From the UHGV virus genome UHGV-1497419: a stretch of DNA of 64,000 nt; one strand, given 5' to 3'. Below, in pieces: positions 36,409 through 64,000 of this stretch. The notes below the pieces were generated by a model. The model worked only from the letters and a program-made list of their open reading frames with translations, was not told where the DNA came from and did no database searches. Each line of letters starts with the position of its first letter. Positions within the stretch are counted from its first letter, which is position 1. The DNA is from a virus. The position numbers and the translations under genes are program-made.

Positions 36409-36427
36409 AAATAAGCTATAAAGTCTG

Positions 36428-36462
36428 TTGACAAGTCAGGTGTTATAGCTTATTTTTATACT
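36428..36462 (+). promoter_or_regulatory. candidate promoter (TTGACA - 17 nt - TATTTT, followed by TATACT)
   Basis: Consensus -35 hexamer at 36428-36433 upstream of the 36501 gene. Confidence 0.35.
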
Positions 36463-52944: not shown

Positions 52945-52974
52945 TGTGATTCCTTAATACTTTTAAAAGAAACA

Positions 52975-53010
52975 AAAAAGGGGAAGACCTTTTAAAGTCT
53001 CCCCCTTATA
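52975..53010 (-). terminator. putative terminator hairpin after the tail tube gene
   Basis: GGGGAAGAC / GTCTCCCC imperfect inverted repeat with an A-run on the plus strand. Confidence 0.3.
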
Positions 53011-53017
53011 GGATTTA

Positions 53018-53464
53018 TTAAACACTTGACGCTGGAATTGTAGAAGTGTAGTCTAACTTCTCACAACCAAAAATCCAAGTTTTAGAGTTCTGGTCACGAC
53101 CAAGTTCAATCTGCGGTAATTCCTGCAACCAAGCATTAATACCAGTTGCCAGAACAGAGCCTGATGGGTCGTAGATTACGAAGTTAGAAGAGATATCTTC
53201 TTCAAGTTCCATATTGTCTTGTTTAGCTTGAATTGCAGAAAGCATCTGGTTAGAGAGAGAAGTCTGCATTAACTCAATCTCAATAGTACCTGTCTTGTCT
53301 GCATTTCTTGTCAGAGCAACTTGACCACCTGCACCAACAACTGGTGTCACAAGTGGTGATGTTCTCTGTAGACGCAAGAATGAATCTGGGGCAAAGCCTT
53401 CAATGGCAATACCATTCCAGCTACATACAACGTCTTTAGGGGAATATTGCTGATACATAGCCAT
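53018..53464 (-). CDS. putative tail tube protein
   Basis: 148-aa protein between sheath and chaperone genes; positional. Confidence 0.45.
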   Translation of the reverse strand: MAMYQQYSPKDVVCSWNGIAIEGFAPDSFLRLQRTSPLVTPVVGAGGQVALTRNADKTGTIEIELMQTSLSNQMLSAIQAKQDNMELEEDISSNFVIYDPSGSVLATGINAWLQELPQIELGRDQNSKTWIFGCEKLDYTSTIPASSV

Positions 53465-56757: not shown

Positions 56758-57864
56758 TTAGTCTGGTTTAGCGTCAGAACGAACGTCTACCAGCAACTGA
56801 GGACGTGTGCAGTATGGCAGCATGTAAGAGTGAGCTTCAAAGTCAATACCTTCGTCACGGTCTTTTTCGTATTCGAATACGTACAGTTCCTGACCAAGTG
56901 TATTTGCATAACCCATCTTAGGACATGGACCATATGCCACTTCGAAGATGTTGTTTGCTTCACCCAGCATAGAAACGTTAGGGAAAGCATGACCTACACC
57001 AACAGTTGCTGCTACACTATCAATACTCACCAGAGTGTGAACCTTACCACGCTTGTCTTTGAACTTACCGTTGTACTGGACAAACTTAACACCACCGTAG
57101 TAGAAAGTGTTCATGTGAGCCTGAACGCCGTCAGTACCACCAGTTCTCAGAGAACCAGTAATCTGTTGCCAAGCCAGCGGAGTCTGCTGTGCAAGATAAG
57201 CGTCACGAATCTTAGGGTGTTTAACCAGTTTGCTGAAGAATAAGCGGTCAACAACTACGTGAATTTCTTCACCGTTGATTACAGTGCCAGTCTTAGCTTC
57301 GTCTTCCATGTGCATACGCAGTTCTTCAATAGCAGCGTCAATGTCAGCATTAGGGTTGTCAAGGTCGAAGTAAACAGTCTTCTTCTGAACGTCGAACTGC
57401 TGGTACAGGTCAGCATACAGAGTACCACGAGCATCAACAACTTTACCCTTCAGAGCTTGCATAAACAGGAACTCACGAGTAATATCGAACTTGGTACGAA
57501 TCTTCATCAGCTTCTTAGCACGTACTACAGCTTCAGTAGTTAGTTCGTTTGCAGTGCCTGGCTGACGTACACCCTGAATCTCATCAGGAGTAATGCTTTC
57601 AACTTCTTTGAAGTACATCATTGGGAAGCTGATTTGACGAACACGCTCAGGTGCGCTAGTCTCTGCTTTACGGCTATCACGGTCTACCGCATCAAGCAAG
57701 CTAACATCCCAATCAGTCAAGTCCATAAGGAAAGTAGTTTGGGTGATTGGTGCTGAACGGAACAGACCTAAGTTGGAAATATACCCATAAGTATTAGGGA
57801 TAGACTGGACTTCACCAGTCAGGTCAGCAAGGAAAAATCTGCTTTTTTCAGAATTAGTCAACAT
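56758..57864 (-). CDS. major capsid protein
   Basis: 368 aa, preceded by protease-scaffold and decoration genes (lambda-like head gene order); positional and size-based. Confidence 0.6.
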   Translation of the reverse strand: MLTNSEKSRFFLADLTGEVQSIPNTYGYISNLGLFRSAPITQTTFLMDLTDWDVSLLDAVDRDSRKAETSAPERVRQISFPMMYFKEVESITPDEIQGVRQPGTANELTTEAVVRAKKLMKIRTKFDITREFLFMQALKGKVVDARGTLYADLYQQFDVQKKTVYFDLDNPNADIDAAIEELRMHMEDEAKTGTVINGEEIHVVVDRLFFSKLVKHPKIRDAYLAQQTPLAWQQITGSLRTGGTDGVQAHMNTFYYGGVKFVQYNGKFKDKRGKVHTLVSIDSVAATVGVGHAFPNVSMLGEANNIFEVAYGPCPKMGYANTLGQELYVFEYEKDRDEGIDFEAHSYMLPYCTRPQLLVDVRSDAKPD

Positions 57865-63583: not shown

Positions 63584-63784
63584 TTATTCAGAGTCTGTAG
63601 CAGTCTCTTCTTTCTTAACTTCGAACTTTGCATCAACAGCATCAAGAAGTGCATCCATAGATGCTTCTTTAATATCAATACCTGTTGCTACAGACAATCT
63701 GTCTGCAATTGCCATGATAGTATTCTGCATAAATTCTAGCTTTTTGTTAGCTTCATAAAGTTCTTTATAAACGGTCTCACTCAT
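63584..63784 (-). CDS. hypothetical protein upstream of terminase (too short for a typical small terminase)
   Basis: 66-aa ORF with GGAG 9 nt upstream. Confidence 0.35.
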   Translation of the reverse strand: MSETVYKELYEANKKLEFMQNTIMAIADRLSVATGIDIKEASMDALLDAVDAKFEVKKEETATDSE

Positions 63785-63810
63785 TATGTTTTCTCCAAAT
63801 AATTAACCAT

Positions 63811-63854
63811 GTTTCTCCTTAAAAAAGACGGCACAGAGACCGTCAAGGAGAAAC
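63811..63854 (-). terminator. nested hairpin: inner terminator GACGG-N8-CCGTC plus T6 on the minus strand, enclosed by a perfect 10-bp inverted repeat GTTTCTCCTT/AAGGAGAAAC
   Basis: Read from the sequence; the outer arm contains a Shine-Dalgarno-like AAGGAG. Confidence 0.45.
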
Positions 63855-63910
63855 CACAATGTACGTCAGAGACATACTGTATAAGCCTTCTTATAAAGTA
63901 TAACTCTGTA

Positions 63911-63971
63911 AAAAAGCCCTGTCTAAAAATACTCTTCGGTAGCGAAAGGAAGAATACTTATAGCAGGGCAT
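63911..63971 (-). terminator. putative structured terminator (GCCCTG ... CAGGGC with long internal loop, T6 on minus strand)
   Basis: Inverted repeat with an A-run on the plus strand upstream of the structural operon. Confidence 0.3.
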
Positions 63972-64000
63972 TATTATTATTTTAATTGAGAGAGAGTAAA

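Follow-up and report, generated by a model that had tools for sequence, protein, structure and literature searches.

Phages of the Felix O1 type are classic tools of typing and biocontrol. The window analysed here, a stretch of 64,000 nucleotides from the virus genome UHGV-1497419, is a Felixounavirus (Felix O1/wV8-like) genome in which the gene order runs from a tRNA cluster through a non-coding element to a 66-aa gene, terL and portal. The element follows tRNA-Cys, the last gene of the tRNA cluster, and directly precedes the packaging/structural operon (terL-portal-head), whose first gene is the 66-aa gene (63584-63784, minus strand; phrog_4397, no assigned function). Within the element, a terminator-like hairpin is enclosed by an inverted repeat that carries an AAGGAG motif. 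Does the enclosing helix mask a working ribosome-binding site, as a sequence-only reading had proposed, or does it act on the late transcript in another way? The Felix O1 genome paper states that temporal gene control, and the passage of many terminators, are unknown, and reports that the phage encodes neither an RNA polymerase nor a specificity factor (PMC3185647).

All coordinates of the element are given for the minus (gene-sense) strand. Pairing was assessed in 28 distinct sequences (18 of them from Felixounavirus) and the contribution of the 3' flank in 15 representatives; Felixounavirus, Suspvirus, Mooglevirus, the pEC-M719-like phages and the lineage L134 are together referred to as W-type. 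The functional proposals are computational, and all energies are equilibrium predictions with arbitrary transcript ends. A TerL search of IMG/VR returned close relatives only, and tblastn with TerL placed Kolesnikvirus as the next group at 69% amino-acid identity, followed by a drop to about 40% in Pseudomonas phages. The core-pattern scan of IMG/VR gave mostly chance matches in coding DNA, while that of metagenomes added one lineage, L134. Elsewhere in the structural module, the gaps are taken up by small genes or by an ordinary terminator. A search of the Ounavirinae literature found no transcriptome, 5'/3'-end mapping, expression or small-RNA study for any phage, and the accessible part of the PhageMaP report (phage Bas63) gives no result for the tRNA/terL intergenic region.

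A probable weak terminator at the end of the tRNA unit

A consensus scan marked the hairpin GACGGU-CUCUGU-GCCGUC (GACGG-N8-CCGUC; 63844-63827) as terminator-like. With a U-G sixth pair, it has 6 bp, including four G-C pairs, and a 6-nt loop, and it is abutted without a gap by a U6 tract (63826-63821); its predicted energy is -7.4 kcal/mol. The U6 tract is invariant in all W-type sequences and reads CUUUUU in Kolesnikvirus. The inner stem was 100% paired across the 28 sequences. In L134 it is GGCGGC/GCCGUC, and in Kolesnikvirus a wholly different sequence, GUGGCG/CGCCAC, takes its place, with 4 of the 6 pairs altered on both sides. The stem is therefore either invariant or compensated in Felixounavirus, Suspvirus, Mooglevirus, the pEC-M719-like phages, L134 and Kolesnikvirus, and the hairpin with its U-run is retained in five or six Ounavirinae lineages. 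The record of Citrobacter phage Mijalis annotates this hairpin as a terminator; the site is absent from the Felix O1 terminator list.

A G+C-rich stem-loop followed by a U-run is thus found on the transcribed strand at the end of a transcription unit, with its structure kept. We conclude from these comparisons that the inner hairpin and U6 are a genuine but weak Rho-independent terminator, and that this terminator, judged by gene order, closes the tRNA transcription unit plus a conserved structured non-coding trailer of ~150 nt. The sequence-only reading had seen here a typical intrinsic terminator upstream of the structural operon, which the scan call, the gene order and the stem kept or compensated across lineages bear out.

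The trailer as a candidate structured RNA

The ~150-nt non-coding block is the most conserved nucleotide stretch of its neighbourhood, being 92-94% identical between genera compared with 68-70% for the 66-aa gene and 88% for terL. It comprises two hairpins, H1 and H2, and a single-stranded pyrimidine tract. tRNA-Cys ends about 6 nt beyond the window end, and the first terminator-like structure after it is H1 (63916-63969), a 54-nt hairpin GCCCUG...CAGGGC followed by U6 (63915-63910). H1 has a minimum free energy of -24.2 kcal/mol (z = -6.6), and 99.8% of its cells were paired in the 28 sequences, with one UA<->CG double change; in the metagenome lineage L134 its apex is swapped for a different, still paired sequence. 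The second hairpin, H2 (63867-63908), is CAGAG-U-UAUACU-U-UAUAAG-AAGG-CUUAUA-C-AGUAUG-U-CUCUG (-15.4 kcal/mol, z = -5.2). It was 99.4% paired, one of its pairs occurs as AU, GU or GC, and its basal helix covaries, reading CAGUG/CGCUG in L134 and UCGAG/UUCGG in Kolesnikvirus. A small alternative hairpin, H3 (GUAUGUC-UCU-GACGUAC, 63861-63877), competes with the 3' half of H2; it was 100% paired with U-G<->U-A swaps, a one-sided form of support, and could form in Kolesnikvirus as well (GUAUG-UUUCGG-CAUAC). For all 8 representatives compared, folding of the sense strand was more favourable than that of the antisense strand, by 8-21 kcal/mol.

A covariance model of H2 built from W-type sequences found one copy per genome and scored the syntenic Kolesnikvirus element at 21 bits; because antisense matches at the Kolesnikvirus locus score equally, the E-value of this match is marginal. 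The arm sequence of the outer helix and the H2 motif have no copies beyond chance elsewhere in the window. Against Rfam, the whole window gave no match at the gathering score, the locus at E<=10 gave only tRNA-Cys and sub-threshold matches (the best being an S15 leader at 20.6 bits, for a threshold of 39.5), and the whole tRNA cluster of phage ASO1A, searched at E<=0.1, yielded nothing but tRNAs and noise below threshold. The block may thus be regarded as a candidate new structured RNA outside the described RNA families.

A helix predicted in read-through RNA

The inverted repeat around the terminator is exactly as the sequence-only reading had described it, a perfect 10-bp repeat with the 5' arm GUUUCUCCUU at 63854-63845 and the 3' arm AAGGAGAAAC, which contains AAGGAG, at 63820-63811. 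It ends at 63854, and the extra bases that the earlier reading had included, 63855-63861, are CAUUGUG. Transcription reaches the 3' arm only by read-through. A perfect Watson-Crick 10-mer is a trait of particular strains, found in 3 of the 28 distinct relatives; most Felixounaviruses have the 3' arm AAGGGGAAAC, which gives one U-G pair. Across the variants of the 3' arm (AAGGGGAAAC, CAGGAGAGAC, CAGGAGAGCC, CAGAGGAACC and GGGAGAUUCC), complementarity to the 5' arm is maintained. In the aligned register 93% of the outer helix was paired, with pEC-M719 and L134 pairing in a shifted register, and RNAalifold predicted a 7-bp core. Support for the outer helix is thus one-sided, all substitutions being in the 3' arm, and since an A-to-G change opposite U is neutral for pairing, these changes do not prove selection.

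A perfect 10-bp inverted repeat is in itself not rare: with a spacer of <=40 nt, 8 loci were found in the window versus 4.3 +/- 2.8 in dinucleotide shuffles. The nested fold as a whole does better than chance, reaching -19.7 kcal/mol (z = -4.5; 1 of 200 shuffles was equally good). The 16 nt past the U-tract add -12.7 kcal/mol in the window, compared with -4.7 +/- 1.8 kcal/mol for shuffled flanks, of which 0 of 1000 equalled it. In all 15 representatives the 3' flank adds -9.8 to -12.7 kcal/mol versus -3.3 to -7.2 kcal/mol when shuffled, and the fraction of shuffles equal to the natural flank is 0.000-0.042. Kolesnikvirus forms its outer helix from unrelated sequences, without an SD-like sequence. 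Because the helix is found in 15/15 representatives, including Kolesnikvirus with its unrelated sequences, the folding predictions indicate that it is a conserved RNA structure, possible only in transcripts that have passed the U-tract. In a comparison of read-through and terminated folds, which the earlier reading had proposed as a check, the predicted outer helix distinguishes read-through RNA in all 15 representatives.

The AAGGAG motif and the 8-codon ORF

The sequence-only reading had taken AAGGAG as a Shine-Dalgarno sequence for a short ORF. On the minus strand, this 8-codon ORF (MVNYLEKT*, 63810-63784) begins with an ATG at 63810, and its stop TAA (63786-63784) overlaps the ATG of the 66-aa gene (63784) as UAAUG. 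The model would be that AAGGAG serves the ORF, that the outer helix masks AAGGAG, and that the UAAUG overlap couples the ORF to the 66-aa gene; in the window, the SD, its spacing to the ATG and the stop/start overlap are indeed textbook. However, the ATG is present in 11 of the 28 distinct sequences, with GTG in 1, and missing in 17, and the helix persists. Every Suspvirus, Mooglevirus, pEC-M719-like and L134 sequence lacks the ATG, as do 7 of the 18 distinct Felixounavirus sequences, one of which has GTG. The 66-aa gene has its own conserved GGAG, and the Kolesnikvirus helix does without an SD-like sequence. No conserved SD, start and frame of the kind expected for upstream-ORF coupling was therefore found, and the comparison has already largely refuted the model, to which we assign hardly any likelihood. 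We judge the 8-codon ORF not functional, and AAGGAG does not appear to be a working ribosome-binding site. Of the earlier proposal that the locus is coupled to translation of the late operon, a link to initiation of the first late gene stays plausible, while the route through the ORF, with its ATG in 11/28 sequences, falls away. The plus-strand ORF noted after AAGGAG runs antisense to the conserved RNA, lacks gene context and is rejected as well. A leader-peptide attenuator, which would have its ORF upstream of the terminator and overlapping the alternative strands, was likewise considered and rejected, because the one short ORF here follows the U-run.

A 17-mer complementary to the ribosome site of the first late gene

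A 17-mer, CAUUGUGGUUUCUCCUU (63861-63845), ends in the 10 nt that make up the 5' arm of the outer helix. It is invariant in 28/28 distinct sequences and in L134, and we propose that it opposes a translation initiation region (TIR) as an anti-TIR. The real TIR of the 66-aa gene is GGAGAAAACAUAAUG (63796-63782), with GGAG and AUG conserved in all lineages; the GGAG is at -12, outside the outer helix. The spacer of the TIR varies (AAAACAUA, AAAUACA, AAUUACA) and the complementarity to the 17-mer is retained: 14 of 15 positions of the SD-AUG are complementary in every W-type lineage, at -15.7 to -16.8 kcal/mol (-16.8 in the window). Among 67 gene starts, the TIR of the 66-aa gene is the best partner of the 17-mer. 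The CAUUGUG:CAYAAUG helix was 100% paired and is predicted by RNAalifold.

We tentatively favour, as the best explanation of these observations, a genuine weak terminator combined with a read-through-only helix and a 17-mer anti-TIR that is neutralised by a decoy. The functional element would be the 17-mer just 5' of the terminator: its anti-SD and anti-AUG are spaced as in a ribosome site, and together they match the true SD-AUG at the start of the first late gene. The purine tract AAGGAGAAAC right after the U-tract would be a decoy SD. In read-through RNA, the decoy would zip onto the anti-SD part, stacked on the terminator hairpin; with the anti-SD occupied, the real GGAG about 15 nt downstream would not be captured, and the late mRNA would stay translatable. 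In RNA ending at the terminator, the decoy would be absent and the 17-mer single-stranded. AAGGAG would then be purine-rich because it has to pair with a pyrimidine tract, and the 8-codon ORF would be a by-product. Most likely, therefore, the outer helix neutralises a conserved ribosome-site-blocking sequence rather than masking a working ribosome-binding site. The folding and conservation data suggest a polarity opposite to that of the sequence-only reading, in which the pyrimidine arm is a conserved anti-ribosome-site and the purine arm is its decoy.

When the decoy was replaced in silico, opening the real SD-AUG cost 2.1-5.7 kcal/mol more in 9 of 9 lineages, and with the decoy the predicted openness of the TIR was about equal to that with a scrambled 17-mer. 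A change of the decoy (63811-63820) to ACACACAACA would be expected to lower translation. In Felixounavirus, scrambling the 17-mer still makes the TIR easier to open than it is in the wild type, by 1.6-3 kcal/mol. Because the AUG remains paired with CAUUGUG in the consensus fold, the net outcome for translation could be repression instead of protection. The Kolesnikvirus pyrimidine tract is part of an internal loop, the helix around the terminator there lacks a decoy SD, and a match between 17-mer and TIR was sought and not found; the decoy model is thus limited to the W-type lineages.

The RNA that ends at the terminator might have a function of its own. Most of the 22 nt that precede the terminator are unpaired in the terminated fold, the seed is invariant, and the element lies 3' of the last tRNA, as in small RNAs and trailers. 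The 17-mer has predicted complementarity to four other gene starts; when its first 10 nt were permuted, the match to the other gene starts was lost (0.3% of controls were equal), from which it follows that the fit depends on the 5' half of the 17-mer. The best predicted partners in trans are the 66-aa gene and the genes for the major head protein (start at 57864), baseplate hub (48938) and tail assembly chaperone (52944). The terminated product, H1-H2-seed-terminator, could on these predictions be an undescribed phage small RNA whose 17-nt anti-ribosome-site pairs in trans with late mRNA starts, which we consider rather unlikely. It is only remotely possible that such an RNA is the partner of the phage Ro60-like RNA-binding protein encoded at the head of the same operon. 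A Y-RNA identity was rejected, there being no Y-RNA-like Rfam match and no evident Ro-binding stem.

Alternative explanations

The 17-mer might instead silence the late gene in the manner of T4. In read-through RNA from the early/middle tRNA unit, a composite stem, made of CAUUGUG:CAYAAUG with the outer helix and the terminator or of the whole 17-mer on the TIR, would hide the start of the first late gene and keep the RNA silent until a late transcript started inside the structure or cleavage (e.g. by RNase III) removed the 5' strand. An upstream strand complementary to the late SD and AUG is present, and its 14/15 match to the TIR (-15.7 to -16.8 kcal/mol) is stronger than that to the decoy (-12.3 to -14.1 kcal/mol). 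The AUG-covering helix is the fully paired one predicted by RNAalifold, for 5 of 7 lineages the SD of long read-through RNA is predicted to be unpaired with a probability of 0.00-0.09, and unmasking of ribosome sites by RNase III is documented for adhE and lambda cIII (cited in PMC5371410). Yet the opening energy of the TIR changes by just 0-2.7 kcal/mol with versus without the upstream strand, the decoy offsets the 17-mer, and there is neither room nor a recognisable promoter between the 17-mer and the gene: the interval from 63861 to 63784 contains no TATAAATA, no sigma-70-like match and no T4-type motif, and no late promoter was found inside the hairpin. Given also that Felix O1 is reported without an RNA polymerase or specificity factor (PMC3185647), we think such a lock unlikely. 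A processing or decay element of the lambda sib/tI type is improbable. Here the nested read-through stem would be a double-stranded RNase substrate, and its cleavage would separate stable tRNA/trailer RNA from the late mRNA, or destabilise one of them. The terminator hairpin does top a longer stem whose distal strand lies past the U-run in 15/15 representatives, that is, in all lineages including Kolesnikvirus with no SD-like arm, and H1 and H2 are likewise long imperfect hairpins. Against this, the stem is short for RNase III (16 bp that a U6 bulge interrupts and a further 7 bp on the far side of a 24-nt loop), and the invariant TIR-complementary 17-mer would be left unexplained.

A promoter inside the block would give the terminator another role. 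A sigma-70-like sequence, TAGACA-N17-TATACT (63897-63925; 10/12), has its -35 in the H1 3' strand and its -10 in the H2 5' strand and is annotated, by consensus only, in the ASO1A record. Acting constitutively in the lambda PR'-tR' manner, it would yield a ~70-nt terminated leader, and an antitermination factor or RNA element would turn the late genes on. The U-tract follows 70 nt after the match, which does not vary among W-type lineages, and the passage of many Felix O1 terminators and its timing are stated to be unknown (PMC3185647). However, the hexamers lie within hairpins that covary as RNA, which already explains their conservation, and a transcript started there cannot form H2, though H2 covaries. 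Promoter-like matches in the region are not above those in shuffles, and a sigma-70-like promoter was sought in the Kolesnikvirus element and not found. Such a leader is thus very unlikely, as is a plain pair of tandem terminators, in which H1-U6 and then the inner hairpin insulate the late operon and the outer helix is merely a sturdier RNA 3'/5' end. Dual terminators with small RNAs between them are known at the ends of stable-RNA operons, the E. coli rrn operons being the precedent (PMC8144298), and a single 10-bp inverted repeat is statistically not rare. Nevertheless, insulation would not explain the near-invariance of the 150-nt block, a read-through-only helix kept by different sequences in every lineage, or the complementarity of the 17-mer to the TIR. 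Finally, the position immediately upstream of terL and the extreme conservation would suit a site acting as DNA, either a packaging signal by the terminase genes or a palindromic protein-binding site. This is extremely improbable, as the folds are strand-specific (the sense strand having the 8-21 kcal/mol advantage), a G-U pair would be an A-C mismatch on the other strand, and compensatory changes and whole stem replacement preserve structure rather than sequence; a DNA palindrome was rejected for the strand asymmetry of the folding.

Relation to known regulatory systems

In lambda tI/sib, the element of int retroregulation, the terminator hairpin caps a longer stem, the distal strand of which is encoded past the U-tract; sib is located 3' of the controlled gene and acts via RNase III and exonucleolytic decay. 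The element described here is similar in that terminated and read-through RNAs are predicted to fold differently and would have different fates. Unlike sib, it precedes the late operon and follows the tRNA unit, and its 5' strand is a proposed anti-ribosome-site. Translational riboswitches and RNA thermometers have expression platforms of the anti-SD/anti-anti-SD kind, and here too a pyrimidine tract can pair with an SD-AUG and a competing purine tract would decide the outcome. The choice in this case, however, is apparently set by a transcription stop between the competing strands, and no ligand or sensor domain was identified.

For its genes e, 49 and soc, T4 uses a hairpin that conceals the ribosome site as long as the gene is carried on a long early transcript; late transcripts start inside the hairpin and leave the site accessible. 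Felix O1-type phages are likewise lytic myoviruses, and an upstream strand, present only in transcripts from the upstream unit, is complementary to a late gene start. In contrast to T4, the structure has no late promoter inside it and no T4-type motif, and it has a putative decoy strand, which is absent in T4. 3'ETS-leuZ is a tRNA operon trailer, and the T4 stable RNAs C and D lie in the T4 tRNA cluster. RrA/B/F are small RNAs between the dual terminators of the E. coli rrn operons (PMC8144298). The candidate RNA resembles these products of stable-RNA operons as a structured RNA past the last tRNA, between two terminator-like hairpins, with an intrinsic terminator and U-tail; it differs in having no sequence or Rfam relationship to them. 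The PR'-tR' leader of lambda (6S RNA) is under Q antitermination. As there, a short terminated leader would stand directly before the late operon, whereas the promoter is doubtful here and absent in Kolesnikvirus, and no Q-like factor is known in Felix O1 (PMC3185647).

Implications

The element lies precisely where the tRNA unit gives way to the packaging/structural operon. If the conservative part of our conclusions alone holds, a spurious upstream ORF and its ribosome-binding site are removed, and a candidate new structured RNA is documented. If the small-RNA reading is true, termination would produce a translational repressor and read-through a self-neutralised, translatable late mRNA, and this would amount to a post-transcriptional timing switch for Felix O1-type phages, which lack their own RNA polymerase or sigma factor. 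If the terminator, anti-ribosome-site and decoy choose between a small RNA and a translatable late mRNA, the element would be a compact, factor-independent coupling of termination to translation, and such a switch would provide a concrete handle on late-gene control in Felix O1-type phages.

Genomic setting and comparison set

More than 200 Felixounavirus genomes, among them VpaE1, wV8, ASO1A and relatives of Felix O1, match the final 2.1 kb of the window at 98-99% identity. Records MG065664.1 (Campylobacter phage A132) and one "Staphylococcus phage" are ~98% identical to this Felixounavirus region and are probably mislabelled or contaminated entries. On the minus strand of annotated relatives, the gene for a Ro60-like RNA-binding protein is followed by ~24 tRNA genes and a few small ORFs, then tRNA-Ser and tRNA-Cys, a 220-nt non-coding stretch holding the element studied here, a 66-aa gene (63584-63784 in the window), terL, the portal gene and the remaining structural genes. 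The tRNA-Cys ends ~6 nt past the window end; directly after it, a CU-dinucleotide repeat (63988-63996, minus strand) differs in copy number among strains and is predicted to pair with the Shine-Dalgarno (SD) region of the 66-aa gene in long read-through folds.

Outside the window, the tRNA operon of ASO1A opens with a gene (locus L083, 5666-7081) for a protein of 471 aa that carries DUF2828 and DUF7788 domains (phrog_850, 'RNA-binding protein'). A PhageMaP preprint named its Bas63 homologue Ro60-like and suggested that some 'tRNAs' are Y RNAs; Y-RNA families had no match anywhere in the tRNA cluster. An unannotated stretch of the ASO1A cluster (L083 8514-8899), also outside the window, gave a weak tRNA match (31.7 bits) and tmRNA- and permuted-tmRNA-like matches below threshold (16-29 bits), and may represent either a tRNA that has degenerated or some tRNA-like RNA.

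We compared 28 distinct versions of the region (non-identical element versions among the fetched loci) from Felixounavirus, Suspvirus, Mooglevirus and one pEC-M719-like lineage, and added two Kolesnikvirus versions (TerL protein identity 69%) and L134, one new divergent lineage from a metagenome. Felixounavirus, Suspvirus, Mooglevirus, the pEC-M719-like lineage and L134 are termed W-type and set against Kolesnikvirus. The sample amounts to five or six non-independent lineages, and most pairing-preserving changes are one-sided.

The terminator and the structured block that it closes

Each sequence feature listed by the sequence-only reading was found in its place. The inner hairpin (63827-63844, minus strand, followed by U6 at 63821-63826), which has a U-G sixth pair, is terminator-like by consensus scan, and its pairing is kept at 100% in the 28 distinct sequences. 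The stem is GGCGGC/GCCGUC in L134 and GUGGCG/CGCCAC in Kolesnikvirus, where four of six pairs are altered on both sides and a U-run again follows. Citrobacter phage Mijalis has exactly this hairpin marked as a terminator in its GenBank entry, and it is absent from the terminator table of the Felix O1 paper (PMC3185647). The proposal of an intrinsic terminator holds, and what is conserved is its structure. Because it is weak (-7.4 kcal/mol), partial read-through is likely. A strong ordinary terminator, GGGGGAGACUUUAAAAGGUCUUCCCC-U6, lies at 52957-53008 (minus strand) after the gene at 53018-53464 and is identical in sequence to t64 of the Felix O1 paper (PMC3185647).

The inner terminator closes a block of ~150 nt (63969-63821, minus strand) that follows the last tRNA gene and is more conserved than terL at the nucleotide level: identity across three genera is 92-94%, compared with 68-70% for the 66-aa gene, 67-68% for the spacer after the U-run, 78% for the upstream gene and 88% for terL. 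The block folds at -52.1 kcal/mol (z = -5.3) into two long hairpins, H1 (63916-63969, with its own U6 after it) and H2 (63867-63908), a mostly unpaired 22-nt stretch that holds the pyrimidine tract, and the terminator. Compensatory changes occur in H1 and H2, and L134 has a different sequence at the apex of H1. In the Mijalis record (L003 1458-1533), the annotated tRNA-Cys overlaps H1 and misfits the tRNA itself, whose sequence stops near 1476; this record seems to carry shifted feature coordinates.

The sense strand folds better than the antisense strand by 8-21 kcal/mol in 8/8 representatives, which speaks for a site that works as RNA and not as DNA. A covariance model spanning H2 to the terminator found a single copy per genome and matched the syntenic Kolesnikvirus element at ~21 bits, a score that is weak alone because antisense matches at the same locus score similarly. 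Rfam searches gave no match for the element, and the block is a candidate new structured RNA family. A sigma-70-like match, TAGACA-N17-TATACT, has its hexamers inside H1 and H2; since it has no counterpart in Kolesnikvirus, we regard this putative promoter as unproven. A TTGACA of the plus-strand gene block is flanked by the arms of a perfect 13-bp inverted repeat (36409-36455, AAATAAGCTATAA...TTATAGCTTATTT), which looks like an operator or promoter-associated palindrome.

A helix around the terminator in read-through RNA

The terminator is enclosed by an outer helix (5' arm 63845-63854, 3' arm 63811-63820). Taken alone, an inverted repeat with ten perfect pairs and a short spacer is unremarkable (8 loci in the window vs 4.3 +/- 2.8 in shuffles); the nested fold, at -19.7 kcal/mol (z = -4.5), stands out. 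The 3' flank contributes -12.7 kcal/mol here vs -4.7 +/- 1.8 with shuffled flanks (0/1000 as good), and across 15 representatives the gain from the flank beyond the U-run is -9.8 to -12.7 kcal/mol vs -3.3 to -7.2 when shuffled, with a fraction of 0.000-0.042 of shuffled flanks matching the real ones. No change occurs in the 5' arm. In the 3' arm, 6 of 10 positions vary, yet it stays complementary (93% of cells paired in the aligned register); the arms pair in shifted 8-bp registers in pEC-M719 and L134, and just 3 of the 28 distinct sequences have the perfect Watson-Crick helix seen in the window. Unguided RNAalifold predicted the inner hairpin, 7 bp at the core of the outer helix and a 7-bp CAUUGUG:CAYAAUG helix over the 66-aa gene's start codon.

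The Kolesnikvirus terminator likewise lies inside a helix whose 3' strand is past the U-run. This helix is of unrelated sequence (GCAUAC-A-GGCAGUU ... AACUGUC ... GURUGU) and holds no SD-like tract, and the two Kolesnikvirus variants differ in it with pairing retained. A second Kolesnikvirus terminator, GGAGGC...GCCUCC-U6, lies 50 nt past the first (L037 2195-2265, L036 2199-2265); its stem is itself an SD/anti-SD pair, and the preceding AGURUGUACAUU resembles an incomplete second copy of the AGUAUGU...CAUACA module.

What is conserved is therefore the nesting of the terminator in a helix predicted to form only in read-through RNA, and the outer helix as a mark of such RNA is borne out. This feature is not a masked ribosome-binding site belonging to a small ORF. 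The sequence-only reading had noted an 8-codon ORF (63784-63810) just after the AAGGAG of the 3' arm. This ORF is not conserved: it starts with ATG in 11 of the 28 distinct sequences and with GTG in one, and lineages other than Felixounavirus have neither codon there. The 66-aa gene, by itself, is preceded in every lineage by a GGAG at -12. A link to late translation is plausible; the proposed route through AAGGAG and the mini-ORF found no support. An Rfam match to the ribosomal S15 leader at 63708-63835 (minus strand), covering the terminator's 3' half and the beginning of the 66-aa gene, scored below threshold (20.6 vs 39.5 bits) and was taken as chance.

Complementarity to gene starts and a proposed decoy

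Just 5' of the terminator lies an invariant 17-mer, CAUUGUGGUUUCUCCUU (63861-63845, minus strand), whose last ten bases are the 5' arm. It is complementary at 14 of 15 positions (-16.8 kcal/mol) to the SD-AUG of the 66-aa gene, GGAGAAAACAUAAUG (63796-63782, minus strand). Although the spacers differ, complementarity is kept in Suspvirus, Mooglevirus and the pEC-like lineage (GGAGAAAUACAAUG, -16.1) and in L134 (GGAGAAUUACAAUG, -15.7). Among 67 gene starts in the window (mean -8.2, SD 3.5), the translation initiation region (TIR, SD to AUG) of the 66-aa gene is the best match, and when UCUCCUU was kept and the first ten bases were permuted, only 0.3% of controls gave an equal number of good matches. 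Thus, the 17-mer looks like an anti-SD plus anti-AUG at ribosome-site spacing. The next four matches (-15.0 to -16.2 kcal/mol) are the minus-strand starts of the exonuclease (23726), tail assembly chaperone (52944), major head protein (57864) and baseplate hub (48938) genes; because they are nearly as complementary, action of the 17-mer in trans is a possibility.

The pyrimidine tract would be contested by two purine tracts, AAGGAGAAAC right after the U-run, which would close a small loop and stack on the terminator, and the real GGAG ~15 nt further on. In partition-function calculations, changing the ten bases after the U-run to ACACACAACA raised the opening cost of the real SD-AUG by 2.1-5.7 kcal/mol in 9/9 lineages. 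With the natural sequence, this cost is about that with a scrambled 17-mer in Suspvirus, Mooglevirus, the pEC-like lineage and L134, and 1.6-3 kcal/mol above it in Felixounavirus. The best reading of these models is that AAGGAG would be a decoy neutralising the anti-ribosome-site in read-through RNA, and that RNA stopped at the terminator would leave the anti-ribosome-site exposed. Such a decoy would explain the invariant 5' arm, the fast-evolving yet complementary 3' arm and why no ORF is needed. It fails to cover Kolesnikvirus: the helix around the terminator there lacks a decoy, and the pyrimidine tract is in a loop.

Alternative explanations

A serious alternative is a T4-like lock, in which read-through RNA would be silent until processed or replaced. 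The full conservation of the AUG-covering helix favours it, as does a 17-mer/TIR duplex intrinsically stronger than the 17-mer/decoy duplex, but no internal promoter was found and the predicted opening energies differ little. An RNase III site of the lambda sib/tI kind would fit the anatomy, which is right in all lineages, Kolesnikvirus included. Less likely are a PR'-tR'-like promoter-proximal terminator, for which the hexamers in H1 and H2 would have to serve as promoter, plain tandem terminators, which would leave the near-invariant block unexplained, the upstream-ORF coupling of the sequence-only reading, with its ATG in 11 of the 28 distinct sequences, and a DNA site, given the strand difference in folding.

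A literature search found no transcript mapping in any Ounavirinae phage, and the temporal control of Felix O1 and the passage of its transcription through terminators were stated to be unknown (PMC3185647). Under the decoy model, the exposed 17-mer might have a trans role on late gene starts or be a mere cis element. The element, with its predicted function, would be a variation on known kinds of terminator-linked RNA switches.
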